From contig JAEHCO010000001.1 of NCBI GenBank assembly GCA_020697715.1, positions 842,149-906,148 of the forward strand: a stretch of 64,000 nucleotides of DNA. The letters are read 5' to 3'. Made by a program: the position numbers and the translations under genes. Positions 1 through 39,649 of this stretch are shown piece after piece. The notes beneath the pieces were generated by a model. It was given only the letters and a program-made list of their open reading frames with translations. It made no database searches and was not told the origin of the DNA. Each line of letters begins with the position of its first letter. The stretch's first letter is position 1. This DNA comes from Methanobacteriota archaeon (GTDB taxonomy: Archaea; Thermoplasmatota; Thermoplasmata; SG8-5; JAGLSY01).

Positions 1-2596
1 TTACAGTGGCATCCCGATTCTTGATCGCATCCCTGAATCCAGGGTCTATGCCGAGTGCTCTTTCAAAGCACTCGAGGGCGAAAGTGTGCTCATCCATCCT
101 TGAGAGCGCGATACCCTTATTGTTCCATGCTTCCGGATGTTCAGGGTCGAGAGTTATAGCTTTATCCAGGATCCTTATCGCTTTGTCCAGATCATCATCA
201 CTGATCAGAACGAATCCTTTATTTGAAAGTAATAATGGAGTCTCATTTATGTTCAATGCCATGTCCAGGCAGGATATAGCTTCTTTGAACCTATCCATCT
301 CGTACAATGCGGCAGCTTTGTCCGCCCATGCAATGTCATTATCTTGATCGATATCTATGGCCCTATCGAAGTACTTGATAGATCCTTCTGGGTTGCCAGA
401 CGCGAGGATCGCATTTCCTTTATTGCACCAGGCCTCGGAGAAATCTGGATCTATCTGTATGGCTCTATCAAAGCACAGGATGGAGTCATCATGCTTTCCG
501 ATGCTGAGCAAAGCAATACCTTCCGCGTTCCACACCTCGGATGATCCTGGCTCGATCTCGATCGCTCTGTCAAAGCTCTCGATGGCCTTCAGGGTGTCAC
601 CGAGGCTCATGTGGATATTCGCTCTTTCTATCCACAATGCGGGCTCTTCCTTTTCTAGTTCTGTAAGCACATCATTGGCTCTCAGAGCATCTTCGAATTC
701 CCCAATCTCGATCAATGATGTTGCTCGATTCATCATGGCTGAAATGTTATCTGGCTCCTTCTTCAGGACCTTGTCATAATATTCAATGGCATCATCGAAC
801 CTTCCCATCAGATAAAGCAAATTAGCTTTCTCCAGTATTGATGATGCACGCTCCTCCAATTCGATGGTTGTGTTCAGGCAATCCAGTGCCTCATCGTACT
901 TCATCATCCTTATCAGCATTTTTGATTTCTCGAAAAGAATGGAATATTCTCTGATCTCCTCTTCCAGAGCCAGATCTTCCTCCACCTGTTCAAGCTCTGG
1001 TGGATCTCCAACTGGAAGTTCCGATTCTGGTAATGGTACGGCATCCTCAACTCCATGGCCGCATTTGGCACAGAAAGCCGCCGCATCTGTAAGAGGTGCA
1101 TCGCATGCGGAGCAGTTTGGATCTGATCCAAGTCCTATGAGGTCGGCAAAGTCATTTGTCAATGATTCCTCTGTGATCGCCGGCTTTTTGCTTGCAGCCT
1201 TTTTAGCTGCAAGTTTTGATTCTTCTGCTTCCCTGGCCTCTCTTTCCTCAGCTTCCTTGAGAAGAAGTTTCTCTTCGAGTTCCTTTGCCTTTTCTTCCTC
1301 TTCGATAAGGCGGAGGCGCTCTTCTTCCGCCTCTCTTTCTCTTCTTTCTTCCAATTCCAAAAGACGGGATTCATCCATTTCTTTCAAAGCTTCCTCTGCC
1401 TTCTTCTTCTCCTCTATGGCCAGGTCCCAATATGGTTTAAGAAGAAGTGAATTGTCAAAAGCATCAATGGCCCTTCTTGGATCTTCCATCGCCATCAGCG
1501 CGATGCCCTTTTGATAGTAAACCTCGGGACTTTTCTCAAGCCCCAGTACCTTGTCATAACATGAGATGCAATGCTCATACTGCTCCATATCATGCAGTAG
1601 CAGTCCCTTATTTAGCCAGGCCTCTTTGTAATCATCCTTTTTCGCCGTGGCCTTGTCAAAGGATTCCAGTGCATTTCCGTAATCCTTGAGGTATTTGAGT
1701 GCCACGCCTTTGTTATTAAGCACATTGATATTGTCTGGCTCAAGGAGCAATACTTTGTCATAGCACAGCACCGCTTCCTCATGCTTGCCCTGCTCATGCA
1801 GTGTCGCGCCTTTATTGTTCCAGGCTTTGGTGAAATTCTTGTTTATCTTCAATGCCTGGTCATAGCACTGGATCTCATCTTCATATCTTTGTAGTTCGTA
1901 ATAGATAGCTCCAAGATTATACCATGATTCCTCACTATCTGGATTGACCTCAAGAGCCTTTTTGAAACATTCGGCGGCTTCTTCCATTCTTTTCATGGAC
2001 TTCAAAACACTGCCTTTCATGATCCAAGCCAGGTCATAGTTCGGCTTCATTTTCAAAGCATTATCGTAGTATTCGATAGCTTTCTTGAAATTACCTGAAT
2101 TGAAAAAGTCATTGCCCCATCTCATCTGGTTCTCCAGCTCGTCAATGCTGGGTAGGAACCTCTCTCCATCTTGTTCAAGCACTTTCTTCGAGTCCTGCTT
2201 CTTGAGATCATCATCAAGTTCCAGCTCTTTCAGGAGCAGACCGAATTTGTCCCCATCCGCGAGATTCACACCAAGAAGATCAGCATACTTCCTCGCATCC
2301 TTGGAGAGCTTGGTCGTGGATATGAAGATCGCTCTGACATCGACACCTCCTCTCTTCCTGCCGACCATCTTCTGGATGTCCTCGGGTCCAGCATCTGAAT
2401 GGCCCCGTTTTACTTTGATCACAAAGGGCTCTGAGTTTCCTTCAACTTCTCTCAGTGCTTCTATCTCCACATCATCGGCTCTCATGCGAGAACTGGTTAT
2501 CTTGAAGTCCATCTTCTCCAGTAGTTTATTGGATAGTATCCGGAACTCCTCTGGACCGAGGTCATTGACTATGTTCATGAGATATTCCTGACCCAT
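1..2596 (-). CDS. TPR-repeat protein with N-terminal degenerate Mrr-like (restriction endonuclease-fold) domain and an internal zinc ribbon; 3' end lies outside the window
   Basis: Absent from the ORF track. Hand translation from ATG 2596 gives MGQEYLMNIVNDLGPEEFRILSNKLLEKMDF...VIKVKR...AIFISTTKLSKDARKYA...VNLADGDKF, then TPRs (KAIEYYDNALKMKPNYDLAWIMKG; LDPEHPEAWNNKGIAL) and CSAC...CAKC at about 1060-1115. The frame was open in every segment checked, including 1-390. Confidence 0.85.
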   Translation of the reverse strand, partial: MGQEYLMNIVNDLGPEEFRILSNKLLEKMDFKITSSRMRADDVEIEALREVEGNSEPFVIKVKRGHSDAGPEDIQKMVGRKRGGVDVRAIFISTTKLSKDARKYADLLGVNLADGDKFGLLLKELELDDDLKKQDSKKVLEQDGERFLPSIDELENQMRWGNDFFNSGNFKKAIEYYDNALKMKPNYDLAWIMKGSVLKSMKRMEEAAECFKKALEVNPDSEESWYNLGAIYYELQRYEDEIQCYDQALKINKNFTKAWNNKGATLHEQGKHEEAVLCYDKVLLLEPDNINVLNNKGVALKYLKDYGNALESFDKATAKKDDYKEAWLNKGLLLHDMEQYEHCISCYDKVLGLEKSPEVYYQKGIALMAMEDPRRAIDAFDNSLLLKPYWDLAIEEKKKAEEALKEMDESRLLELEERREREAEEERLRLIEEEEKAKELEEKLLLKEAEEREAREAEESKLAAKKAASKKPAITEESLTNDFADLIGLGSDPNCSACDAPLTDAAAFCAKCGHGVEDAVPLPESELPVGDPPELEQVEEDLALEEEIREYSILFEKSKMLIRMMKYDEALDCLNTTIELEERASSILEKANLLYLMGRFDDAIEYYDKVLKKEPDNISAMMNRATSLIEIGEFEDALRANDVLTELEKEEPALWIERANIHMSLGDTLKAIESFDRAIEIEPGSSEVWNAEGIALLSIGKHDDSILCFDRAIQIDPDFSEAWCNKGNAILASGNPEGSIKYFDRAIDIDQDNDIAWADKAAALYEMDRFKEAISCLDMALNINETPLLLSNKGFVLISDDDLDKAIRILDKAITLDPEHPEAWNNKGIALSRMDEHTFALECFERALGIDPGFRDAIKNRDATV

Positions 2597-2598
2597 GT

Positions 2599-5500
2599 TC
2601 AGCCTCCCTCCCTCAACCTTTTTGTACTTCTCTTCTTCCATGATCCAGCCTCTTCATGTTCGGGGTCCAATTCCAGGACCTTATCAAAGCTAATGATGGC
2701 CTGTTTATACTTTTCGGCCTCGTGCATGGTGACCCCTCTAGCCAACCAATTCTTTGGATTGTCCTTCCCCATCTTCACAGAGTAATCCATCGATCTTATG
2801 GCATCATCGTATTTGCCGATGTCCTTCTGTGCGACTCCCAGCAATCTCCATAGATAATCATTCTCTGGGTTTAATTTCAAAGCTTCTCTGTAAAGATTGA
2901 TGGCCTCATTATATCCACCATTCTTGTACATAAGACGTCCTTTTCCTATCAGGGCATCGCTATTCTCACCATCGACCTCTATGGCGAGATCATAAGCCTC
3001 TCGGGATTCATCGATCTTTCCCTGGCTTCGATGAACATCTCCTTTCAGAGTGAGTGCCCGACTATCATTCGGATATATTCTCAATGCGCTGTCCAGAGCT
3101 TGAATAGCTCCACCCCACTTGCCCTTCCTTAGCATTATATCCGCCTTGCCGATCAAAGCATCCGCATTGGTTGGAGCGAATTTGAGCAGTCCTTTATAGA
3201 TATTCTCTGCTTCATCCACCTTGTCCTTTTCCAATAGCATGTTCGCCTTCTTTATCCAGGCGTATTCATATTCTTCATCAAGGCTTATGGCCCTGTCATA
3301 GAATTGTAAAGCCCCGCCCCATCTTCCTTTCTGATGGAGAACATCTGCTTTTTTGGCCCATGCTTCTGGTTCATCTGGGTCTATATCAGATGCTTTCTCA
3401 TAGCATTTGTAGGCCTCGTCATATCTTTCGAGCCCTGCAAATCCATCTCCTATGCCCAGCCAGGCATCCATATTGTTCACATCTACCTCGATAATACCAT
3501 TGAAGCACACGATAGCGTCTTCGTACATCTCATTCTCAAGGTCGATGGTTCCCAGTAGGAATCGTGCATCAATGTGATCCTTATCAAGCTCTGTGGCTTT
3601 TTTCAATGACGCGACAGCTTCATCAAATTCTTCAATATCGTAGAGTCCTCTTCCTTTCTGGTACAAGGCCTCTATATTATCCTCATCTGACTCAAGGACC
3701 CTGTCCAACATCCTGAGTCCTTGTTTCTCGCGACCCATGTCTATCAATAATACTGCCTTGCCGGTCTGGAATTGAAGATTATCAGGGTTCAGATTGATAC
3801 CCGTATCGTAGCAAAGAAGGGCTCCCTCTTCATCCCCTTCTTCTATGAGCTCTTCAGCCCTTTCCAGAAGAGCCTCCTCATCATTGGATGGATCATGATC
3901 TTCGAGATCCTCATCCTCATCCTCATGATCGTCCTCCTCATCCAGTTCTTCATCCTCAACTTCCTCTTCAGGATCATCATCTTCCTCATCCGGCTCATCA
4001 TGGATAACTATGTCCTCTCCTTCAAGGACAAGCATATCTTCTGGATTCAGCATATCGACGATGTCCGCCTCTGTCTGCAGCTCTTCGATATCTGCGGCTT
4101 CTTCGATGATGGGAATGTCATCCACTTCTTTGCTTGGAGTTTCGGTATCTGATTTCGGCCCGCCCATTTTACCAAAGATATCATCGACATCCTGGAACCC
4201 TGCTTCGACATCAACGGTTCCTAACTCCGCCTCGACATCGATGGAGCCCTCATCTTCTTCCACATCTGTGTCAAGTGCATCTGTAAGGTCAGCGATACCC
4301 GATTTTTCTATCTCATCCACGGTATCTTCAATTTCATCATCTTCATGATCATCATCCTCATGATCATCCTCTTCAACCTCATCCTCAAAAGCCTCTTCTA
4401 TATCGGAGACCAGGTCTTCCTCAACAGGAAGCTCTGGCTCTGGCTGTGACTCTGGCTCTGTGGCTTCATCAATATCGGCCATGAGCTCGTCTTCCAGGGA
4501 TAGTTGATCATCAATGACATCGGCATCATCTTCATGATCTATATCATCTTCAATGACCTCATCAATTTCTTCCTCTATCGATGGCTCTGGAGTTATATCA
4601 TCATCAATTATTTCTTCGATCGGGGTCTCAAGTTCTGCTGGCATCTCAGTTTCTGCCGGCAATTCCACTGGATCTTCTTCCTTTATCTCAGATACTGGTT
4701 CCTCTGGTAGGGTCACACTTTCCGGGTGAAGTGGCAGTGGCTTCTTCTCCATCCGCCTGATGAATTTCGGTCTCGATGTGATGGTTTTGGCCAGATCATA
4801 ACATTCAACAGCCTCGTCTATGCTTCCGAGCTTGGTGAGTGCGTCACCCTTTCCTATCAGTGCCTCTGGGTGATTCTCATCCAGCTTGAGTGAAAAGTCA
4901 TAGCACATTATGGCTTCTTTATATTTGCCGATGGATAGCAGTGCGTCGCCCTTGTGCTTCCAGATGCCAGCTTCTTTCGGGGATAATAATAATGCTCTAT
5001 CAAAGCTCCTCAATGCATCCTCTTCTTCTCCAATATGAAGGTGAGCGGTTCCCTTGACATTCCAGATGATCCCATCTTCCGGATCCATGTCAAGGTATTC
5101 CTTGCTGGCTTCAATAGCCTCCTGAAACCTCTCTATAGAATAAAGGATTATAATGTGATTTCTCCTTGCTGGCATATATCCATCATCTTCCACCAAAGCT
5201 CTTTCATATTGCTTCAGAGCATAATCCGCACACCTGCTTTTGATCATCTTCGCATCCTTGTCATCAAATGCGATATTATCCTTCACCGCATTGACATTGA
5301 GCCAGGATACATTTCCTATCATGGTCTCCGCCCTTGCGCCAAGATCAAGCTCCGTGTATTTCTCATGAAGATCGTGAGCCATATCCTTCAGTCTATTTCC
5401 TATGTCTACCGCTTCCTTCGTGATAAGTATGCTCTCATCTGGCTCTATCTGGACCGGGATGCCAAGATGTTGGAGAAGACGCTTTATCTTCGATACTTGT

Positions 5501-22705: not shown

Positions 22706-25700
22706 ATGAGTTTATTAGAAAATATGAAAAGTGGGCAAATTAAAGCAATGATTTCAGTTTTAATGGTAGGGTTGATGTTCCTCATGAGTGCGGGGCCAAT
22801 CATGGCGGAATATTCTGGAGATGCGATATCTCAGGACGGTGGCAATGCCACAACTCCTGCGGCTTTCCCAACTCCTTGGCTTGATGATTTTGAATTTGGT
22901 GTGCTTGGTGGAAGTACTGGGGTCAATTGGACGACCACGGACATAACACTTTCCGGTGTGAGCAATGCCATATCTCAATCGGGAATCAATTCCCTTTACA
23001 CATGCGGAGGATCTGTAGTCGTTAATTCCTCTTCTATAGATACCAGTTCTCTTAGTTATACTCAGTTAACATTCTGGATAATGAGAGGGGACGATGGTGT
23101 GATCGGTAGTGAGGATACGGATGCAGGTGAGAACTTCGTAGTGTCTTACTTAAATGATCTTGGTTCTTGGATAACTCTCGAGATCTTCCTAGGTAGTGGT
23201 TTAAATGGAGAGATCATGTCCAGGGAATATTCATTGCCAGCAGATGCAAATCATGCAAATTTCCAGGTTCAATTCGAGCAGACAGCAGGAAGTGGTTTTG
23301 GGATGGATTACTGGCATGTGGACGATGTCATGGTCAGAGAATATACGCCCTTCGAAGTGGAGGTGACCCCTGGATCCCAAACAGGTTCAGCCCCAGCAGG
23401 TGGGGTGGTCGATCACCATATCAGTATTGAGAACATAGGAATATTGAATGACACATATGATCTTTCTGTATCTGGAAATACTTGGCCAGTGACCTTTAGA
23501 AACATGGCGGATACCATGGATATCACGATGATCAGTGTACCTGTCGGCAATATGATCCAGGTGATCGTACGTGTGAATATTGCAAACACTGCCATGCCTG
23601 GTGATTCAGATCTTGCCAACATAACTGTCACTTCACAAAGTGATGGCTCAGTGGAGGATAAATGCATTGTGAATACTGAATTTTACATGACTGTTAGCAG
23701 TGGCGGTGCTTATTTCGTTACTGGATCCTTATCAGATTGGGCTTATGTATCCAATGATGGGTCCCAACATTTCATATTCAATACTTTTGATTGGGTTTGG
23801 CCGACATATGCTAACAGTGGTGAGATACTTCTCATATGGGACGAAGACGCTTGGAATGATGCCTGGAGAACTGAAATGGGACTTCGCAGTATACCATTCA
23901 CACAAGTTACTGGTAGCGCGGTAAATGCCAGCATGCTGGATAGTACCACTTATCCGATGATCATAATTTCTGAAATGATGTACACCGCATCTCTTCCAAA
24001 TATGGAATCACTCGTTACTGAATTTGAGGACTATGTATTGGATGGAGGAGTTCTTATTGATATGATAGGCACCAACAATTTGAGGAGATGGAGCCAGGGA
24101 ACTCCAGGTCCTTTTGGAACAGTAACGGATGCCACTACAGATCTTAACAATTATGTTGCTGAGGTTGGACATGAGATGGTTGAAAATATCCCTATGCCTT
24201 TCTTTTCAGGCAACTCCGCATCTCATGCCAGAATAACCACATCACCAAACGGTTCTATTGACCTTCTTACAACAGGGACGACCCCGGGCGGGGTTCCAGT
24301 GGCTTGCTGGCTTGAATTTACAAGCTTTGAGAATGTCACAGTATTATGGACATCTCCTGCCAATGATTCCACGAGTGTCCCGGTCAATAACAATATCGTT
24401 GTGGTATATGATCAGAATATGAATTCCAGTGATATACCAGTGCTTTCACAGGTTGGCGGTACAGATCCAGGAGGATGGACATTCACAGGCTGGTCTTCAT
24501 CAAATATAAATAATGACACCGCGACATGGACGCATAATGACTGGGCACTGAACCAGACCGTGAACATGACGGTTTACAATGGTAGTTCGATAAGTGGGAA
24601 TGTGCCAATTCAATATAATTGGACCTTCAATACCACATTGGGTGGTGTCACAACAGCCAATGCCACAGGCCCCATTGGTACCTGGTCAAATAATGCTGAT
24701 ATTGACATTCAATATGTGACAACCGGAGGCCCATCCACTGTTGATATTTATTATTCGACAAATGGTGGGGCAACCTGGACCTTGATAGGTACTGATGATC
24801 CCGCAGACGGATCCTTCCTATGGACCATTCCAGGAGAGGGGGTGTATTCTTGGATAGCCGTGTCTCCTGATGAGATCGCACCTGTTCCAACAGATATACC
24901 CGAAATTAGCTCTTACCAGTATGATGCTACATCACCTGCTTCATCTGCTGACCTGATAACCCCTTACTGGCATGAGTCCTCGCTTTTGATAACAGCAACA
25001 GCAAATGATGCTCTAAGTGGTGTATCCTCTGTCCAGCTCTATTATAGATACTCGGCGGATAATGCATCATGGGGAGGTTGGATATTATTCAATACGGACA
25101 GCGCCGCTGCTTATGATTTCAACTTTGATTTCCCACAGTCTGATGGTTATTATGAATTCTACACTATTGCGATGGATAATGCCTTCAATATGGAGGCAGC
25201 TCCCGGGTCTGCAGATGCCATATGTGCCTATGATCCTGTCCCACCAGCAAGCTGGGTAGATATGATATCACCTTACCTCCAGCATATGTCGCCTTTACTC
25301 ATAACCGCCACAGCAAGTGATGCCACGACAAGTGTGGATTATGTGGAATTATGGTACAGGTATTCGAACTTTAACTTCACTTGGGGTGCATGGACGATAA
25401 TAGGTAATGATACGACATCACCATATTCGTATAGCTTCACATTCCCTAATGGTGAAGGTTACTATCAATTCTACACTCGGGCAATGGACAATAATTCTCA
25501 ATATGAGCCAGCTCCAGTAATGGCTGACACATCCTGTCAATATGAACTGATCATTCCAGATGTCACATCTGTGGTTCCTGTAGATGCATCCACTGGCATA
25601 GATATTGGTCAGGATGTCAGTGTGGTATATGATGGGACCATGAACACTCTTGTCACTCCGATATTGACACAGACTGGCGGTACCAACCCGGGTGGCTGGG

Positions 25701-27295
25701 TCTTTGTAGGATGGTCCACGACCAATGTAGCGGATGATACAGCCACATGGACCCACAGTGATTGGACATATGCTCAGCTTATCACTTTGCAAATAAATGG
25801 GGGTGAAAATCTCTATGGTAACTCACTTGCAAATCCTGCTACCTGGAGCTTCACGACCTTTGTGCCGGATATGACACCACCTGTGGTGGATGCTGGCAAT
25901 GACAGATTTGAGAACTCGATCTTCACACAATACGGTTCAGCCACTGATGCAGAATCTGGGGTCGATGGATATGAATGGACACAGGAATCTGGTCCAGGTA
26001 CTATCACTTTCCAGGATCCATATAATGCGTATACCCAAATGGAGGCTGATACTGATGGGGTATATGTGGTAAGCCTCATGGCCTATGATTTCGAAGGAAA
26101 TAGTGCCACTGACACCTTTAGACTTGTATGGGATACGGTCGTTCCTATTGTTGATGCAGGACCTAATAGCACCCGGAATAAGCAATTCACTCAGTACGGC
26201 ACGGTCATAGAAGAAGGAAGTGGGATCAGTTACTACTCATGGACAGTGGAAATTGGATATGTCAGTCATATCACCTTTGGATCCAGTTATGATAATCAGA
26301 CCACGATTCGATCTGACTCAGATAGGACATACACCATCCGGTTCACCGTCTCTGATCTTGCAGGAAATAGCGCCTATGATGAATTCACTTTGGTTTGGGA
26401 TACCACGTCCCCCATGGTCACTATAACTCCATCTGGAAATGATGTCCCGATCGATACCAATATCACCTTGTCCTTTGATGAGGAAATGAACCGCGACAGT
26501 GTGGAAGCTGGTCTGATAATACTATGGAACAATGGGGATGAATATGTTGAGGATGATACGATCACTGGAACCTTCAACTGGAATGATGCTGGCTCAGAGG
26601 TGTCCTTCGATCCAGATGATCCGCTATCTTATAGTATGAAATATACTGTGGAATTCACAAATTCGGTGAGAGATATAGCTGGTAACAAAATGGGCAGTGA
26701 TGGAGGATACAAGGGCTTTATCACCATGGATGAACCAATTCCACCAGCAGGCGATATAGAAGGCCAGATATTGGATAATAATGATGAACCTATCGAAGGA
26801 GCCGTGGTCGAGATAATGATCGATGGAGTTTCGTATAGTGACACGACGGATTCAGATGGTAATTTCGAAATAGAGGGCGTTCCTGTAGGAACTCACGATA
26901 TGACAGTTACCAAAGGTACTGTGGAAGATACCATATCGGTTGTGATCGAGCCTGATGACACTACAGAGGTCCCACCTTTCAATCTTGTTCCAGAAACAGT
27001 AGAGGATGATGGAGCATCGAGCTTTTGGTGGATACTGTTAATAATAATAGTAGTGGTAATTCTGATCTTGATCATCGTGATGAAGAATAAGAAAAATGGA
27101 CCACCGCAACAGGCACACACACCTCCACAACATTACGAGGATCCCCCACCGCCACCAGGATATGTCGATCAGTCTGCTAGCACCATGCCTCCAGAGGGAG
27201 CTCCCCCTACGACTCCAGGGGAAGCAACACCTGTGATGCCAGAAGAGGCACCACCGATGCCACCTGAAGATATGCCACCAGCATCTCCTGAATAG
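22706..27295 (+). CDS. Large cell-surface glycoprotein with SbsA/Big_5-type Ig domains, repeated beta-sandwich units, a carboxypeptidase-regulatory-like domain, TM anchor and Pro-rich tail
   Basis: Signal peptide; duplicated GGTxPGGW...DTATWTHxDW, GYYxFYT.AMD and PxVDAG units; WWILLIIIVVVILILIIV; many NxS/T sequons. Confidence 0.85.
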   Translation: MSLLENMKSGQIKAMISVLMVGLMFLMSAGPIMAEYSGDAISQDGGNATTPAAFPTPWLDDFEFGVLGGSTGVNWTTTDITLSGVSNAISQSGINSLYTCGGSVVVNSSSIDTSSLSYTQLTFWIMRGDDGVIGSEDTDAGENFVVSYLNDLGSWITLEIFLGSGLNGEIMSREYSLPADANHANFQVQFEQTAGSGFGMDYWHVDDVMVREYTPFEVEVTPGSQTGSAPAGGVVDHHISIENIGILNDTYDLSVSGNTWPVTFRNMADTMDITMISVPVGNMIQVIVRVNIANTAMPGDSDLANITVTSQSDGSVEDKCIVNTEFYMTVSSGGAYFVTGSLSDWAYVSNDGSQHFIFNTFDWVWPTYANSGEILLIWDEDAWNDAWRTEMGLRSIPFTQVTGSAVNASMLDSTTYPMIIISEMMYTASLPNMESLVTEFEDYVLDGGVLIDMIGTNNLRRWSQGTPGPFGTVTDATTDLNNYVAEVGHEMVENIPMPFFSGNSASHARITTSPNGSIDLLTTGTTPGGVPVACWLEFTSFENVTVLWTSPANDSTSVPVNNNIVVVYDQNMNSSDIPVLSQVGGTDPGGWTFTGWSSSNINNDTATWTHNDWALNQTVNMTVYNGSSISGNVPIQYNWTFNTTLGGVTTANATGPIGTWSNNADIDIQYVTTGGPSTVDIYYSTNGGATWTLIGTDDPADGSFLWTIPGEGVYSWIAVSPDEIAPVPTDIPEISSYQYDATSPASSADLITPYWHESSLLITATANDALSGVSSVQLYYRYSADNASWGGWILFNTDSAAAYDFNFDFPQSDGYYEFYTIAMDNAFNMEAAPGSADAICAYDPVPPASWVDMISPYLQHMSPLLITATASDATTSVDYVELWYRYSNFNFTWGAWTIIGNDTTSPYSYSFTFPNGEGYYQFYTRAMDNNSQYEPAPVMADTSCQYELIIPDVTSVVPVDASTGIDIGQDVSVVYDGTMNTLVTPILTQTGGTNPGGWVFVGWSTTNVADDTATWTHSDWTYAQLITLQINGGENLYGNSLANPATWSFTTFVPDMTPPVVDAGNDRFENSIFTQYGSATDAESGVDGYEWTQESGPGTITFQDPYNAYTQMEADTDGVYVVSLMAYDFEGNSATDTFRLVWDTVVPIVDAGPNSTRNKQFTQYGTVIEEGSGISYYSWTVEIGYVSHITFGSSYDNQTTIRSDSDRTYTIRFTVSDLAGNSAYDEFTLVWDTTSPMVTITPSGNDVPIDTNITLSFDEEMNRDSVEAGLIILWNNGDEYVEDDTITGTFNWNDAGSEVSFDPDDPLSYSMKYTVEFTNSVRDIAGNKMGSDGGYKGFITMDEPIPPAGDIEGQILDNNDEPIEGAVVEIMIDGVSYSDTTDSDGNFEIEGVPVGTHDMTVTKGTVEDTISVVIEPDDTTEVPPFNLVPETVEDDGASSFWWILLIIIVVVILILIIVMKNKKNGPPQQAHTPPQHYEDPPPPPGYVDQSASTMPPEGAPPTTPGEATPVMPEEAPPMPPEDMPPASPE

Positions 27296-30173: not shown

Positions 30174-30233
30174 ATTTATTCATACTCTTTCAAACCCATA
30201 TCATAATTATTTAAATAAGAAGTATGATGTACA

Positions 30234-32555
30234 TTGAGCGAGGTGCTGTTAACGTCTAATGATTTCCTTCCCGATGGTAAACTGATCCGAACTATCCACG
30301 GCGGAGAGGATACTCTCAAGAAAAGTCTTATAAAACTCAAGAAATATGAGTTCACTGGCTACGTTAAGAGCATGCTGAAGCGTGATGGGAAGATATCTGA
30401 AGGATATTTGATAATTAAAAATGGAGTTCCTGTAGCGGCAGTCTATGGTCGAAGAGATGGATCCGATCTGCAGATAACGAAGCAGGGTGAGAAAGCTCTT
30501 AAACTTGCCTGGGTGGATTCCTATGATGATAAATGTGAGATAGAGGTCAGAGGTAGATTGGAGGTAGATGCATTTCTCTCAGAACATCCCGAATCCTCCA
30601 TTACTGTTCTGAAACCCTCTGGAAAGAAAAGACCACGAGCCAAAGTGGGGATATCGTGGGGGGATTCAAATAATAAAGAACCAAATAAGACAGGTCCGAG
30701 CAAGGAATTGAAACCCCTTCAAAATAGGATCGAACTATGGAGATCTGAAGGATATGTCGTGAACAACCTTCAGGAGGCTCTTGAAGGTCCAATTGAAAAT
30801 GCGAAGCACATGTTCGACGAATTCAGTGAGAATATCAAGAAGATAGATTTTTTCAAGGACGATCTGGAAAGCATGGATACCATCGGTCATGGGACCGAGG
30901 TGGAAAAGCTCAAGGCTCTTTTCAAGAATCCGATGAAGATAACCGCCATAGAAGCCGCTATGGAAGATCTGAGCGACAAGATACATATATTGGATGACCC
31001 AGAGGAATCTGAAGATATAGGAACTGGACATGATTTCAATCTGGAAATAGAGCCAATAGTTGCTGAAAAGCCACCAACTACTGAACCGATCATCGAGAAG
31101 CCAGTTCAGAAGTCAAAACCTGTATTCAGTTCAGTTCCCGAACTAGATCCCATTGTCATGAACAAGGAAGAAACTATCAAAGAGCCTATTGAGGATCTTT
31201 GTGGGATATGTGGCGGTGGTATGGGCGGTCTTGATGAATGTCCAATATGCGGTGCTATCAGGAACACGAAAACAGACAAAGGAAAGCTTGATGATATTCT
31301 CAAGACGAAGGATACTGGACTCATTCCCACATTCACCTTCGAGAATTTTGTTGTCGGGGACAATAACAGATTCTCGCAAGCGGCTTCCTTGGCTGTTGCC
31401 AAAGCCGAATCATCTGTTTACAATCCATTATTGATCTGCAGTGGAGTTGGTCTTGGTAAGACACATATGATCAATGCCATAGGAAATTATGTGGTAAATG
31501 GTGATGAGGGTAGGAAGGTCCTTTATATCACCACCGAGAAGTTCATGCAGGAATTCATAGAAGCTACCAGATCCAATAAGCTGAAGGCTTTCAGAAGCCG
31601 ATATAGAAAGATAGACATTCTTCTTTTAGATGATATCCAGTTCATCGCCGATCAGGAAGCTGTTCAGGATGAATTGTTCCATACTTTCAATGCTCTTTAT
31701 AAGGATAATAAACAGATAGTCATGTCCAGTGATTGTCCATTAAAAGATATATCTGGCTTGAAGGATAGACTTGTCTCTCGTTTCGAATCAGGCCTGGTTA
31801 CAGATATACAGGCTCCGGATCTTGAGACCCGAGTGAGCATATTGAGGAAGAAGGCCGAGATAGCGGGCTTTGTTGTTGGAGATGATGTATTGAATTTCAT
31901 TTCCCGGATATATACCAGCAATGTCCGGCTTTTGGAAGGTGCATTGAATAAGATCATCGCATATTGTGAATTGATGAACACAAGCCCAACAATATCCCTT
32001 GCAGAAGATGTTTTGAGAGATGAGAATAAGGAGCCTGTCAAAGAAGAGCCCAAAGAAAAGGAAGCTGAGATCTTTGATGGTGGGGTCAAGTCGGATAAAT
32101 TAAAGATATCTCGTAGCTATCTGGTGGAAGAGGATCGTCCTGAAAAATGCTTTGAGATATTCGTCGAAACACTTGATCTGGGATATGCTGGCATGTGTAT
32201 CAGCAGGACCAATCCCAGGCGTCTCAGGGGTGACTATGACTTTGGGGAATCGGAATTATTATGGCTAACTGATAGGGAAAGTTCAGAGGCCACGATACAG
32301 CCTGCACTTGAAAGGATCATTTACAAGATAGAGGATCTACTGAACACTGGTAAAAAGGGCATTCTTTTGATAGATGGCCTTGAATATCTCATTAGCAATA
32401 GCAGCTTTGACGCTGTCCTGAGATTCCTTCGAAGATTGATAGATGATGTTTCTGAAAGTGATTCGATATTCCTGATGTCCGTGACACCTGGCACACTTGA
32501 CCCTCAGGATCTGAAGATATTGGAAAGGGAAATGGAAGTTATTTCTTTTATTTAA
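30234..32555 (+). CDS. Multidomain protein: DUF2226-like N-domain, zinc ribbon, DnaA-type AAA+ domain (about 31320-32021) and C-terminal DUF835
   Basis: FTFENFVVGDNN, YNPLLICSGVGLGKTH, LLLDDIQF, FHTFNAL, RLVSRFESGL, PDLETRVSILRKKA, SNVRLLEGAL; C-terminal ISRTNP, WLT, ILLIDGLEYLI..S.FDAVLRFL. Confidence 0.88.
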   Translation: MSEVLLTSNDFLPDGKLIRTIHGGEDTLKKSLIKLKKYEFTGYVKSMLKRDGKISEGYLIIKNGVPVAAVYGRRDGSDLQITKQGEKALKLAWVDSYDDKCEIEVRGRLEVDAFLSEHPESSITVLKPSGKKRPRAKVGISWGDSNNKEPNKTGPSKELKPLQNRIELWRSEGYVVNNLQEALEGPIENAKHMFDEFSENIKKIDFFKDDLESMDTIGHGTEVEKLKALFKNPMKITAIEAAMEDLSDKIHILDDPEESEDIGTGHDFNLEIEPIVAEKPPTTEPIIEKPVQKSKPVFSSVPELDPIVMNKEETIKEPIEDLCGICGGGMGGLDECPICGAIRNTKTDKGKLDDILKTKDTGLIPTFTFENFVVGDNNRFSQAASLAVAKAESSVYNPLLICSGVGLGKTHMINAIGNYVVNGDEGRKVLYITTEKFMQEFIEATRSNKLKAFRSRYRKIDILLLDDIQFIADQEAVQDELFHTFNALYKDNKQIVMSSDCPLKDISGLKDRLVSRFESGLVTDIQAPDLETRVSILRKKAEIAGFVVGDDVLNFISRIYTSNVRLLEGALNKIIAYCELMNTSPTISLAEDVLRDENKEPVKEEPKEKEAEIFDGGVKSDKLKISRSYLVEEDRPEKCFEIFVETLDLGYAGMCISRTNPRRLRGDYDFGESELLWLTDRESSEATIQPALERIIYKIEDLLNTGKKGILLIDGLEYLISNSSFDAVLRFLRRLIDDVSESDSIFLMSVTPGTLDPQDLKILEREMEVISFI

Positions 32556-32575: not shown

Positions 32576-34225
32576 TTAAATCACATAATTCTCTTTGTCA
32601 AGGAAATCCTTGAATTCTTTTACTGAATGAAGGGCTTCTGGATAATTCTTATCCTTCATCGCGATATTTGCCTTTTTCAAAAATTCTACTGGCTTGGCAA
32701 TATCAATGTTCATCATCTTTATTTCCAATAGGCTTGTCTTGGCCTTTTTCATGGCTGTGGATATGTGAGTTGGAAGTATCTCATTAAGACTGTCCTGAGC
32801 CTGTTTCGCGAATATGGAGGCTGAGTTCCAATCTTCATTCTCAGCTGCTTTCTTTGCCTCATTGTAAAAGCTTAAAGCCGTTCCCATCTCGATGTTCATG
32901 GCCTTTGCATCTTCCATTGTGGCTCCCATTATTCTGAGAACGCTCTTTGCATCCAGAGCTTCTTCGCCCACGGTCTCTTTCAATAATGAATCCACTTTCT
33001 TTATCTCTAATAGAACTGTCTCAAAATCATATGAGGACATCGCATTTTGAATACTGGCCATGCTCATCTGGATAGCTGAAGAACCTTGGGTCTCCGCATC
33101 TGCCTCATTGGCCTTGAGCTTGAGAGCTTTCACCCTCTCGTTCATATGATCCATGATTATCTTTTCAATACCTGCCTTACCCTCTTCGACCAGTCTTACC
33201 GCGGTCTCAAGATCCTTATTCTTTCCTGCCGCCACGGCTTGATTTATCAGGCCTCTGCTTTTGGTTACATTTATCTCGCATCTTTTGGCCACTGCGAGAT
33301 ATTTTTTCACTTCTCCAATTAGCTTGGGAAGTTCTTTGTATTTCTCTTTTAAATTGGCCCTGCTCTGTGCGGACATCTCTGCGGAAGGTGCGGATGCTTC
33401 TGCCGGAGCCGGCTGAGGTGTGGGTGTGGGTGTGGGTGTGGGTGTAGGTTTTTGTGCCGGGCTGATCTTTTCCTCGATCTTCGCAGGCTGTGGTTGAACC
33501 ACTTTCTCGGGTTGTGGCTTAGTGACCTCTGGTTTAGGCTGTGGTTGTTCTGTCACAACGGGTTTAGCAGCTTCTGGTTCAGGCTTCGCTTCAACTGCTT
33601 TCTCTTCCTTCATCGCCTTCATCCTTTCAGCAAAGCTCAATTCCTTTGCCGGTTCTGGCTCTGGTTTTGCCTCGACTACAGGAGCAGCAGGCTCTGAGCT
33701 CTCCCCCTTCATCGCCTTCATCCTTTCAGCAAAGCTCAGTTCCTTTACTGGCTCTGGCTCAGGAGTGGGTTCTGGAGTTGGCTCTGGGATCGCTTCTTCG
33801 GCCTCCTCAACTTCCTCATCCCCAAACTCCGCCCCACAGTTGGGACAGACATCGGTATTGATATCTACCAAGGTCTGGCATAATGGACATTCGAAGACCT
33901 CTCCTTCAGCAAATTCCACACCACAATTTGGGCAAGCGGCGGCATCTTCTGGAATTAATTTATTACATTCTGGACATTCGAACATCTCTGCCTGTGGTTC
34001 TGCTGTGGTTGCTGCAAAAGGATCTCCCTCCGCGGCCTTGAGAAGGTCGCCCATATGCCCATCTACCTGACCTACTAGCTCGACATCCTCCCCCACCTCC
34101 ACTCTTTGTCCATCGACCTGGAAAAGTGTCAGGTCTGTTTTGCAGGAAGGGCATGACTTGTCATCAAGCGGTACGCTCTCATCGCATACGGGGCATATTC
34201 TCTGTTTTGTCCCTGGCTCGCTCAT
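32576..34225 (-). CDS. Multi-zinc-ribbon protein with a Pro/Glu-rich linker and helical C-terminal region
   Basis: Six CPxC motifs forming three ribbons; linker with duplicated KELSFAERMKAMK; helical repeats at the C-terminus. Confidence 0.85.
   Translation of the reverse strand: MSEPGTKQRICPVCDESVPLDDKSCPSCKTDLTLFQVDGQRVEVGEDVELVGQVDGHMGDLLKAAEGDPFAATTAEPQAEMFECPECNKLIPEDAAACPNCGVEFAEGEVFECPLCQTLVDINTDVCPNCGAEFGDEEVEEAEEAIPEPTPEPTPEPEPVKELSFAERMKAMKGESSEPAAPVVEAKPEPEPAKELSFAERMKAMKEEKAVEAKPEPEAAKPVVTEQPQPKPEVTKPQPEKVVQPQPAKIEEKISPAQKPTPTPTPTPTPQPAPAEASAPSAEMSAQSRANLKEKYKELPKLIGEVKKYLAVAKRCEINVTKSRGLINQAVAAGKNKDLETAVRLVEEGKAGIEKIIMDHMNERVKALKLKANEADAETQGSSAIQMSMASIQNAMSSYDFETVLLEIKKVDSLLKETVGEEALDAKSVLRIMGATMEDAKAMNIEMGTALSFYNEAKKAAENEDWNSASIFAKQAQDSLNEILPTHISTAMKKAKTSLLEIKMMNIDIAKPVEFLKKANIAMKDKNYPEALHSVKEFKDFLDKENYVI
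33417..33446. repeat. Hexamer microsatellite (GGTGTG)x4-5 encoding a Pro-Thr repeat
   Basis: Four perfect GGTGTG units plus GGTGTA. Confidence 0.85.
33607..33738. repeat. 33-bp exact direct repeat with a 99-bp period
   Basis: CCTTCATCGCCTTCATCCTTTCAGCAAAGCTCA at 33607-33639 and 33706-33738. Confidence 0.85.
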
Positions 34226-38774: not shown

Positions 38775-39176
38775 ATGCCAGAATTAAAAAATTACAGAGT
38801 GTTTATAAGCCATGCGTGGGAATACAATGCAGATTACCATAGATTAGTAAAAATGCTTAATGAGGCAGATCTATTCAATTGGTCAAATTACAGCGTGCCA
38901 GAACATGACCCATTGGATATGAAAGGATTAATGACTGCATTAGAAAGACAAATTGATCCAACAAATATTGTAATTATCCTATCGGGAATGTATGCTGCCC
39001 ATAGTGACTGGATACAAAAAGAGATAGATATAGCTATCAAGAAAGGTAAAACTATAATCGGAATTGCACCATGGGGTCAACAAAATATTCCTGTTGTCAT
39101 TCAAGAAGCCGCTGAAGATGTAATAAGATGGAATACAACATCTATTATTGATGCTATTCGGAAGTATGCTAAATGA
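38775..39176 (+). CDS. Stand-alone TIR-domain protein (MTH538/DUF1863, Thoeris ThsB-like)
   Basis: YRVFISHAW, NYSVP..DP, VIILSGMY...SDWIQKEIDIA (catalytic Glu position), IIGIAPWG and WNTTSIIDAIR. Confidence 0.88.
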   Translation: MPELKNYRVFISHAWEYNADYHRLVKMLNEADLFNWSNYSVPEHDPLDMKGLMTALERQIDPTNIVIILSGMYAAHSDWIQKEIDIAIKKGKTIIGIAPWGQQNIPVVIQEAAEDVIRWNTTSIIDAIRKYAK

Positions 39177-39649
39177 AAAAAACTGATTATGGAGAGCAAT
39201 ATAACGTGCATCTGCTGGAACAATATAAATTATATGTAGAAATGGCAGATCGCATAAGTATTCGAAGAGGTCAAACAAATAAATTTTATATTTCTCTCTT
39301 GTCAGGATTATTGGCTTTACTATCGATAATGATTGGAACAGAAGGCTTTGATGATATACGCTTGACCGTATTGTTTGCGATTGGATTTCTAGGAACTGTA
39401 CTATGTTTAGTATGGTTTATCAACATAAATTCATACAGACAGTTAAACACTGCTAAGTTTAAAATTATAAACAAAATGGAAGAGAGCTTACCATATCCCT
39501 GTTATGATCTTGAATGGAAACTCCTTGGCCAGGGGAAAGAAAGTAAGAAATATTTACAATTAACACGCGTAGAAAAATATATACCAATTATTCTTTCAGT
39601 TCCTTACATATTACTGCTTGGATATACAATATATATTTGGTTTATTTAA
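39173..39649 (+). CDS. Three-TM membrane protein, RipA-like octameric membrane protein family; putative defence effector
   Basis: LLEQYKLYVEMADRISIRR..TNKFY, W...INSYRQLNTAKF.II..ME..LP, EW..L and LT.VEKYIP; ATGA overlap with the TIR gene. Confidence 0.75.
   Translation: MKKTDYGEQYNVHLLEQYKLYVEMADRISIRRGQTNKFYISLLSGLLALLSIMIGTEGFDDIRLTVLFAIGFLGTVLCLVWFININSYRQLNTAKFKIINKMEESLPYPCYDLEWKLLGQGKESKKYLQLTRVEKYIPIILSVPYILLLGYTIYIWFI

Follow-up and report, generated by a model that had tools for sequence, protein, structure and literature searches.

DnaA is the textbook replication initiator of bacteria; in archaea its use is not expected. What, then, does an archaeal cell do with a protein that carries the ATPase domain of DnaA? 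This question is raised by a gene in a 64,000-nucleotide stretch of DNA (the window; contig JAEHCO010000001.1, positions 842,149 to 906,148) from a Methanobacteriota archaeon of the class Thermoplasmata. The gene (30234 to 32555 of the window, plus strand) is an uninterrupted open reading frame (ORF) of 773 residues and encodes a protein of four modules, namely an N-terminal domain, a helical module, DnaA domain III and a C-terminal DUF835 domain. This layout is based on a 20-sequence alignment (37-71% identity to the window protein) and two structure predictions. The fusion looks like a regulator specific to an archaeal lineage, with a DnaA-type AAA+ module at its core, and not like a replication initiator.

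The original prediction, made from the letters of the sequence, included a close match of about 235 residues to DnaA domain III, and the profile searches confirmed it. Domain III (AAA+ core and lid) extends from residue 355 to 603 (31296 to 32042, plus strand), as delimited by Pfam and NCBIfam matches. Pfam Bac_DnaA (PF00308) matched residues 365 to 524 (E-value 2.8e-60, 203.6 bits, gathering threshold 23) and was found in 20/20 aligned relatives. The NCBIfam DnaA model TIGR00362 covered residues 354 to 603 with only positions 95 to 340 of its 437, that is, with domain III; the score of 329 bits lay below the curated equivalog cut-off of 343.9. The best match to a solved structure was domain III of Bacillus subtilis DnaA (8bv3; E-value 3.7e-78, 267 bits), which aligned without gaps to residues 363 to 596 (234 residues). 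Further, the AAA+ module was 49-55% identical to DnaA proteins of bacterial length. The motifs Walker A (GVGLGKTH, residues 404 to 411), Walker B (LLLDDIQF, 463 to 470), box VII (RLVSRF, 512 to 517) and sensor II (NVRLLEGAL, 563 to 571), together with the CGIC and CPIC pair upstream, all stood where they had been predicted.

The flanks of this domain differ from those of DnaA. Neither DnaA_N (domain I) nor Bac_DnaA_C (the helix-turn-helix domain IV, PF08299) was among the 12 Pfam families that matched the protein at an E-value of at most 1, which, with the alignment of TIGR00362 over domain III only, bears out the predicted absence of both domains. Because the segment from the AAA+ lid to DUF835 (residues 604 to 621) comprises only about 18 K/E-rich residues, there is no space for a hidden domain IV. 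The DUF835 domain that follows (residues 622 to 773; 32097 to 32552, plus strand) was also identified as predicted. Pfam PF05763 matched residues 634 to 767 (E-value 1.1e-25, 90.4 bits, gathering threshold 33.1) and all 20 of the aligned relatives, and DUF835 was the best-conserved module of the fusion, with a mean column identity of 63% versus 44% for the N-domain.

Residues and modules were counted across the family in the best 120 of 625 relatives, which were retrieved from 5.8 billion proteins at E-values of at most 1e-3 among 7997 scored candidates. In the ungapped alignment with 8bv3, the residue number in the window protein equals that in B. subtilis DnaA plus 252. The Walker A lysine was kept in 120/120 fusions and the Walker A threonine in 119/120; the first and second Walker B aspartates were kept in 120 and 118, R512 of box VII in 118 and R565 of sensor II in 119. 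The position of R264, which PMC10721633 gives as the arginine finger of B. subtilis DnaA, is R516 in the window protein, and arginine was present there in 112 of the 120.

According to the same study, E183, N187, I190, I193, N196, R202, K222, E223 and E228 of B. subtilis DnaA contact the DnaA-trio strand; alanine substitutions of I190 and I193 cause severe growth defects, I190A abolishes strand separation, and K222 is essential (PMC10721633). At the I190 position only 30/120 fusions had isoleucine, versus isoleucine or valine in 68/68 canonical rows of bacterial length. The I193 position was occupied by K (31), R (27), T (26) or S (8) in 92 of the 120 fusions, whereas 66 of the 68 canonical rows had I, L or V. 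Lysine was found at the K222 position in 31/120 fusions, compared with lysine or arginine in 66/68 canonical rows. The window protein itself has Q439, I442, T445, N448, R454, Q474, E475, E480 and R516 at these sites, and an unusual C501 where 112/120 relatives have arginine.

Domain III of the fusion is equipped with every residue required for ATP binding, hydrolysis and protomer contact through the box VII arginine finger. The counts suggest strong constraint on these three functions and relaxation of the canonical strand-separating contacts. This pattern is more readily explained by a module for ATP-dependent assembly than by one that opens origins, and it agrees with the oligomerising module that had been proposed.

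The contig that holds the window measures 956 kb and belongs to a genome of 2.12 Mb (93.8% complete, 0.56% contamination), in which the fusion is the one Bac_DnaA gene. Two Orc1/Cdc6 genes scored above their family cut-off (423 and 262 bits) and share the contig with the fusion, at distances of about 455 and 640 kb from it. The claim that a DnaA-type ATPase is present in an archaeon that has Orc1/Cdc6 was therefore upheld. Among the best 120 relatives, both PF00308 and PF05763 were matched in 118; the exceptions, P0005 (568 residues) and P0007 (627 residues), are shorter, and P0007 is marked 'partial' in its source record. Local profiles detected all four modules in 117 of the 120. The source labels of the relatives were Thermoplasmata, Methanomassiliicoccales or Methanobacteriota metagenome-assembled genomes (MAGs).

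When 401 sampled genomes of the class were surveyed with the AAA+ part alone as query (E-value at most 1e-30), DnaA domain III was detected in 181, and in 76 of the 259 high-quality genomes, with a single match per genome save one. It was near-universal in some families (43/46, 32/33, 11/11, 10/10, 10/13 and 32/44 genomes), and with the same query and threshold it was not found in three others (0/48, 0/59 and 0/43). The fusion is single-copy and has a vertical-looking pattern of conservation in many families of Thermoplasmata.

The neighbours of the fusion were compared in 80 related loci from species-representative genomes. Of these, 77 were archaeal; the remaining three were bacterial DnaA genes that matched the AAA+ part only. 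In the window, a convergent gene (32576 to 34225, minus strand) encodes a 549-residue protein with three zinc ribbons (Pfam DZR and zinc-ribbon matches), a linker rich in P and E, and a conserved C-domain that is helical and comprises about 250 residues. A convergent zinc-ribbon gene of this kind adjoined the fusion in 67/77 archaeal loci, or 67 of the 71 that were testable, so the predicted synteny with it is strong. It lay within 166 bp of the end of the fusion in 66 of these 67 loci. Six of the ten loci without the partner have less than 300 bp of downstream sequence, and one other is on the same contig as L097. At L097, a segment matching the profile of the partner's C-domain (E-value 1.6e-7) is found inside the DnaA-DUF835 protein itself, which belongs to another lineage. 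PAC2, for which synteny had also been suggested, adjoined the fusion in the three closest relatives only.

Beyond the partner, a KaiC-family ATPase of about 240 residues was encoded in 43 of the 59 loci whose sequence continues for 3 kb or more downstream. This ATPase is unusually well conserved, with a mean column identity of 76% (alignment A6, 23 genomes). The next gene after KaiC encoded a coiled-coil protein whose C-terminus bears zinc ribbons, and a CARDB protein often came after it. A conserved upstream paralogue that had emerged from single-linkage clustering was rejected as an artefact of that method (the genes were phosphoglycerate kinase, a permease and ThiC). In the usual P-loop pattern a glycine precedes the lysine; the P-loop of the neighbouring KaiC-family ATPase is GPPGSMKT, with methionine just before the lysine.

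In the genome of the window, the KaiC and zinc-ribbon pair is displaced by about 630 kb on the same contig (C11, about 241.6-243.6 kb). The KaiC orthologue (L160:6837-7589, minus strand) is 78% identical to the KaiC of L014. The displaced pair (L160, G000:C11:236000-248000) is located among genes for alanyl-tRNA synthetase, Trm1, NTPase_1 and a DHH/DHH-CID/DHHA1 (RecJ-like) protein, about 8.5 kb from the second Orc1/Cdc6 gene. Elsewhere in this genome DUF835 is joined to V4R and to TPR domains, and KaiC paralogues adjoin a DUF835-TPR pair and a helical-module protein.

We propose, with a probability of roughly 55%, that the fusion acts as an ATP-driven, self-assembling switch or scaffold which is coupled through DUF835 to the KaiC-family ATPase, with the zinc-ribbon partner in the same circuit. 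ATP-bound protomers would join head to tail through the arginine finger, in the manner of DnaA. In such an assembly the N-domains and helical modules would be clustered along with the highly conserved DUF835 domains, and DUF835 would serve as the adaptor that links the assembly to the KaiC-family ATPase. The convergently encoded multi-zinc-ribbon protein may act in the same circuit, and hydrolysis of ATP would reset the assembly.

Several results weigh against this proposal. In the window and in its closest relatives, L010 and L011, the fusion does not have the KaiC and second zinc-ribbon genes next to it. Further, hhalign gave a probability of only 0.4% for similarity between DUF835 and the alignment of the neighbouring KaiC, although both profiles are narrow. 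Because no profile similarity between DUF835 and KaiC was detected in this comparison, gene order and a published label are what support the adaptor idea: a table of PMC5847659 calls architectures joining REC to DUF835 'iKaiC'. That table label is also what speaks for DUF835 as an inactivated KaiC, as had been proposed. Weak matches of DUF835 to KaiC-type families were seen (FlaH, E-value 0.0014; DUF7504 in 14/20 members). The link to KaiC that had been envisaged is supported by gene order, with the KaiC-family ATPase two genes downstream. A count of GK[ST] in DUF835 was discarded as a test for Walker A, as it is not positional. The N-domain, moreover, had no convincing relative among solved structures (best Foldseek E-value 0.13; best VIA Z 5.3). 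Finally, not all contacts to ssDNA (single-stranded DNA) have changed: E183 was kept in 111/120 fusions (E in 68/68 canonical rows), R202 in 111/120 (R in 46 and K in 17 of the 68) and E228 in 114/120 (E in 66/68), and lysine or arginine occupied the I193 position in 58/120, about half of the family. Some contact of the fusion with nucleic acid could therefore still occur.

These retained residues lead to an alternative that we consider possible but doubtful, in which the fusion still acts on nucleic acid as an ATP-dependent oligomer on ssDNA or RNA, with assistance from zinc ribbons of the same or of another protein. Such an oligomer could serve chromosome organisation, repair or the control of replication timing, with DUF835 and KaiC in a regulating role. 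Besides E183, R202, E228 and the basic residues at the I193 position, it would account for the recurrence of zinc ribbons, which are found inside 39/120 fusions, in the convergent partner and after DnaA domain III in the related long forms of 1212 and 1423 residues. Long forms also hold more of the canonical contacts (I190 in 8/11, a hydrophobic residue at I193 in 10/11, K222 in 7/11), and a distance of 8.5 kb separates the second Orc1/Cdc6 gene from the displaced KaiC and zinc-ribbon genes, which also have the RecJ-like DHH/DHHA1 gene nearby. However, the hydrophobic wedge residues and K222, important in B. subtilis according to PMC10721633, are mostly gone from the DUF835 fusions. Pfam revealed neither domain IV nor any other recognised DNA-binding domain in the fusion. 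Further, zinc ribbons are promiscuous and often mediate contacts between proteins. A bolder form of the same idea is that the DnaA-derived part polymerises on single-stranded nucleic acid and reports to the KaiC-type ATPase, as a domesticated engine of bacterial type at the core of a module comprising the DnaA-III/DUF835 protein, the multi-zinc-ribbon partner, the KaiC-family ATPase, the coiled-coil zinc-ribbon protein and a surface protein. We regard this as unlikely; if true, an Orc1/Cdc6-dependent cell would contain a sensor with bacterial ancestry that serves a checkpoint in replication or in the cell cycle.

The remaining explanations fare worse. A bona fide initiator, for a second origin or in place of Orc1/Cdc6, is what the source records imply when they automatically name relatives 'chromosomal replication initiator protein DnaA', and the AAA+ module is indeed very near to true DnaA (267 bits to the B. 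subtilis protein and 329 to TIGR00362). It is nonetheless highly improbable, given a protein without domain I and the DnaA-box-binding domain IV, a TIGR00362 score below the cut-off, decayed ssDNA contacts, two Orc1/Cdc6 genes 455 and 640 kb off on the same contig, and the families in which DnaA domain III was not found (0/48, 0/59 and 0/43 genomes). Membership of an anti-virus defence or mobile-element system is suggested by weak AAA+/STAND-like matches (NACHT, ATPase_2) in some members and by a TIR-type island 6 kb from the fusion. We consider it very unlikely: no PADLOC model matched the fusion or its partner at an E-value of at most 1e-3, the distribution is single-copy, family-wise and vertical-looking, the conserved neighbours elsewhere include housekeeping genes such as that for phosphoglycerate kinase, and the guanine-plus-cytosine (GC) content near the gene (0.42-0.45) is not far from typical values of the window. 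An artefact, whether chimeric assembly or bacterial contamination, has the bacterial look of the AAA+ module in its favour and nothing else, and its probability is negligible. Hundreds of independent assemblies contain this fusion, with the four modules shared by 117 of the 120 relatives, and this conservation across genomes excludes both kinds of error; the 956-kb contig also bears both Orc1/Cdc6 genes, and contamination is 0.56%. The two possible refutations that had been named, a chimera and a contig of bacterial origin, can thus be set aside.

DnaA domain III without domain IV is not restricted to the DUF835 fusions. Domain IV was not detected at an E-value of at most 1e-3 in any of 13 other archaeal DnaA-III proteins tested, nor at this threshold in the tandem forms described below. 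Among the archaeal forms are proteins of 419-426 residues with DnaA domain III alone (L090:1544-2821, L091:1427-2686 and L092:1432-2712). One such protein that we tested scored 322 bits against TIGR00362, below the cut-off, and these proteins retain hydrophobic residues at I190 and I193, and K222. In family f26, to which these proteins belong, 23/24 sampled genomes matched the model of the whole fusion, matches to DUF835 only included.

The long forms (1212-1423 residues; L093:2476-6699, minus strand; L094:4-3642, plus strand; L095:1024-5295, plus strand) come from another class of the same phylum and combine the same N-domain with four to eight helical modules and DnaA domain III. Pfam identified C-terminal double zinc ribbons in L094 and L095, and tblastn found partner-like ribbons in all three. 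At L096 (genome G150, a single 3.58-Mb contig), a 471-residue DnaA-III protein (2065-3480) and a 309-residue DUF835 protein (3565-4494) are encoded in adjacent frames. The DUF835 half opens with a segment similar to the partner's C-domain (E-value 4.7e-7). The read-through match at this locus contains one TGA, and the two frames may represent a genuine split, a disrupted gene or a case of recoding.

Tandem proteins of about 570-700 residues, with the order DnaA-III, helical module, DnaA-III (P0134-P0147 and others; L102-L158), were found in genomes labelled WOR-3, TA06 and Stahlbacteria and in one Gemmatimonadetes MAG. The giant proteins P0132 (1876 residues) and P0133 (1990 residues) carry two DnaA-III modules each.

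We compared these forms in an unrooted tree of 198 AAA+ rows (IQ-TREE quick search, LG+G4), in which several tandem rows have aberrant composition. A branch with a Shimodaira-Hasegawa-like approximate likelihood ratio test (SH-aLRT) value of 99 divided the tree into a canonical-looking side of 102 rows and a non-canonical side of 96. The former comprised 68 rows with a tail of the size of domain IV, 32 others and 2 tandem rows; the latter comprised 36 DUF835 fusions, 34 tandem rows, 11 N-domain/helical rows, 11 others, 3 short rows and 1 split row. The DUF835 fusions formed one clade in 34 of 36 rows, with weak support (62). The tree is compatible with a single origin of all non-canonical DnaA-III forms. 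Because of the distribution of DnaA, transfer of domain III from bacteria into archaea is a plausible and parsimonious reading. The original prediction of a horizontally acquired initiator ATPase is plausible to this extent; the unrooted tree gives neither donor nor direction of transfer, and its non-canonical side also contains tandem forms with bacterial labels.

How does the fusion compare with known systems? With bacterial DnaA it shares the core and lid of the initiator-clade AAA+ domain, Walker A and B, the box VII arginine finger and sensor II, and it is 54% identical to DnaA of Anaeromonas frigoriresistens (P0153). It differs in the absence of domains I, II and IV, in its other N-terminal modules and C-terminal DUF835, in three decayed ssDNA contacts, in its archaeal host with Orc1/Cdc6, and in its place on the non-canonical side of the tree (SH-aLRT 99). 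Hda likewise belongs to the DnaA family of AAA+ proteins and lacks the DNA-binding domain IV, and its function is regulatory rather than origin opening. However, the fusion scored only 80.8 bits against the Hda model TIGR03420 (cut-off 194.8) and 28.7 bits against the Hda structure 5x06, versus 267 for DnaA, and Hda is a short bacterial protein without the N-domain, the helical module and DUF835. Orc1/Cdc6 is also an AAA+ ATPase of the initiator clade, but it belongs to a family of its own, which has a winged-helix DNA-binding domain; two real Orc1/Cdc6 copies are present elsewhere on the contig. The long, 420-residue and tandem proteins resemble the fusion in lacking domain IV, often in having the same helical module and N-domain, and in standing on the same side of the tree; they differ in having no DUF835, and the long forms in keeping more of the canonical ssDNA residues. 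The DUF835 ('iKaiC') signalling proteins of Euryarchaeota place a C-terminal DUF835 behind a variable front end, for example REC (table in PMC5847659). In the fusion, by contrast, this front end consists of a DnaA-type ATPase and two modules without an assigned family.

No description of the DnaA-DUF835 fusion was found in full-text searches of the literature; supplements were outside this search, and tables of the arCOG type may list it. On DUF835 these searches yielded a single paper, PMC5847659. The sequences themselves are already known but misleadingly labelled, under names such as 'chromosomal replication initiator protein DnaA', 'DnaA/Hda family protein' and 'DUF835 domain-containing protein'. 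Automatic naming as DnaA could distort the prediction of origins or domain-level inference in archaeal MAGs. The fusion also represents a natural experiment, in which the AAA+ engine of an initiator is without its origin-binding parts and has probably been put to another use, and it offers a way into the KaiC/DUF835 circuits of archaea, which are poorly understood.

The N-terminal half of the protein is less well characterised by its matches. The N-domain (residues 10 to 122; 30261 to 30599, plus strand), modelled alone, had an alpha/beta fold with a predicted local distance difference test score (pLDDT) of 90.5 and a predicted template modelling score of 0.84. It had been described as DUF2226-like, and this likeness stayed below threshold: DUF2226 (PF09987) matched the N-terminal 139 residues at an E-value of 0.029 and 14.3 bits (cut-off 22), over profile positions 27-67 of 252, was matched at an E-value of at most 1 in only 2/20 aligned family members, and gave no match at 1e-5 in any of 151 Thermoplasmatota genomes. 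The protein atlas yielded leads only (DUF2226 at 0.88 and PatA_N at 0.84). The VIA candidates acetolactate decarboxylase (Z 5.3) and the N-domain of NucS/EndoMS (4.7) were dropped, as both were under the background level of the tool. A second copy of the N-domain was detected by the local profile (E-value 8.5e-15) at the N-terminus of an 809-residue ORF without a Pfam match in the same genome (G000:C22:161844-164279, minus strand; L162:1342-3771).

A disordered linker of low model confidence (about residues 123 to 156) connects the N-domain to the helical module (residues 157 to 256; 30702 to 31001, plus strand), a helical bundle whose helices were modelled at residues 159 to 259 with a pLDDT of about 90. 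The model of the N-terminal 260 residues had no Foldseek match at an E-value of at most 1e-3 and resembled generic helical bundles only (best Z 7.0). The helical module occurs in up to eight repeats in the long forms, lies between both DnaA-III modules of the tandem proteins, and is present in a 452-residue ORF directly after a KaiC paralogue in the genome of the window. Its profile gave only weak E-values (0.01-0.3) against the C-domain of the convergent partner, and in the protein atlas that C-domain matched unnamed Thermoplasmatota clusters only, apart from EzrA at 0.79. The variable linker that follows (residues 257 to 354) contains the zinc ribbon (residues 323 to 339; 31200 to 31250, plus strand). 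The predicted ribbon is thus present in the window protein, with CGIC at residues 323-326 and CPIC at 336-339; it is not a family-wide feature, since only 39/120 members had a CxxC...CxxC pair upstream of the AAA+ module.

The ORF starts with TTG at 30234, and an alternative GTG is located at 30243; the database copy (P0001, 770 residues) begins at this GTG, three codons downstream. The sequence TTTAAATA at 30210-30217, which we take to be a candidate TATA box on the archaeal consensus, is 16 nucleotides upstream of the TTG and 25 nucleotides upstream of the GTG. If it is a TATA box, the fusion gene would be transcribed from a promoter of its own into an mRNA that is leaderless or nearly so, which would favour the GTG start. 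An Rfam search across the window returned zero matches.

Two other loci in the window were noted. A 1529-residue predicted surface protein (22706 to 27295, plus strand) has Big_5, PKD-like and CarboxypepD_reg domains, a hydrophobic stretch close to the C-terminus and a proline-rich tail. In a low-GC patch at 38-40 kb (GC 0.349), a gene pair at 38775 to 39649 (plus strand) encodes a ThsB-like TIR protein of 133 residues (Pfam PF08937, E-value 6.1e-18; PADLOC ThsB, E-value 1.9e-13) and, directly after it, a 158-residue '8xMP' octameric membrane protein (PF24838, E-value 7.5e-40). This pair looks like a small defence-type island in the archaeal genome.

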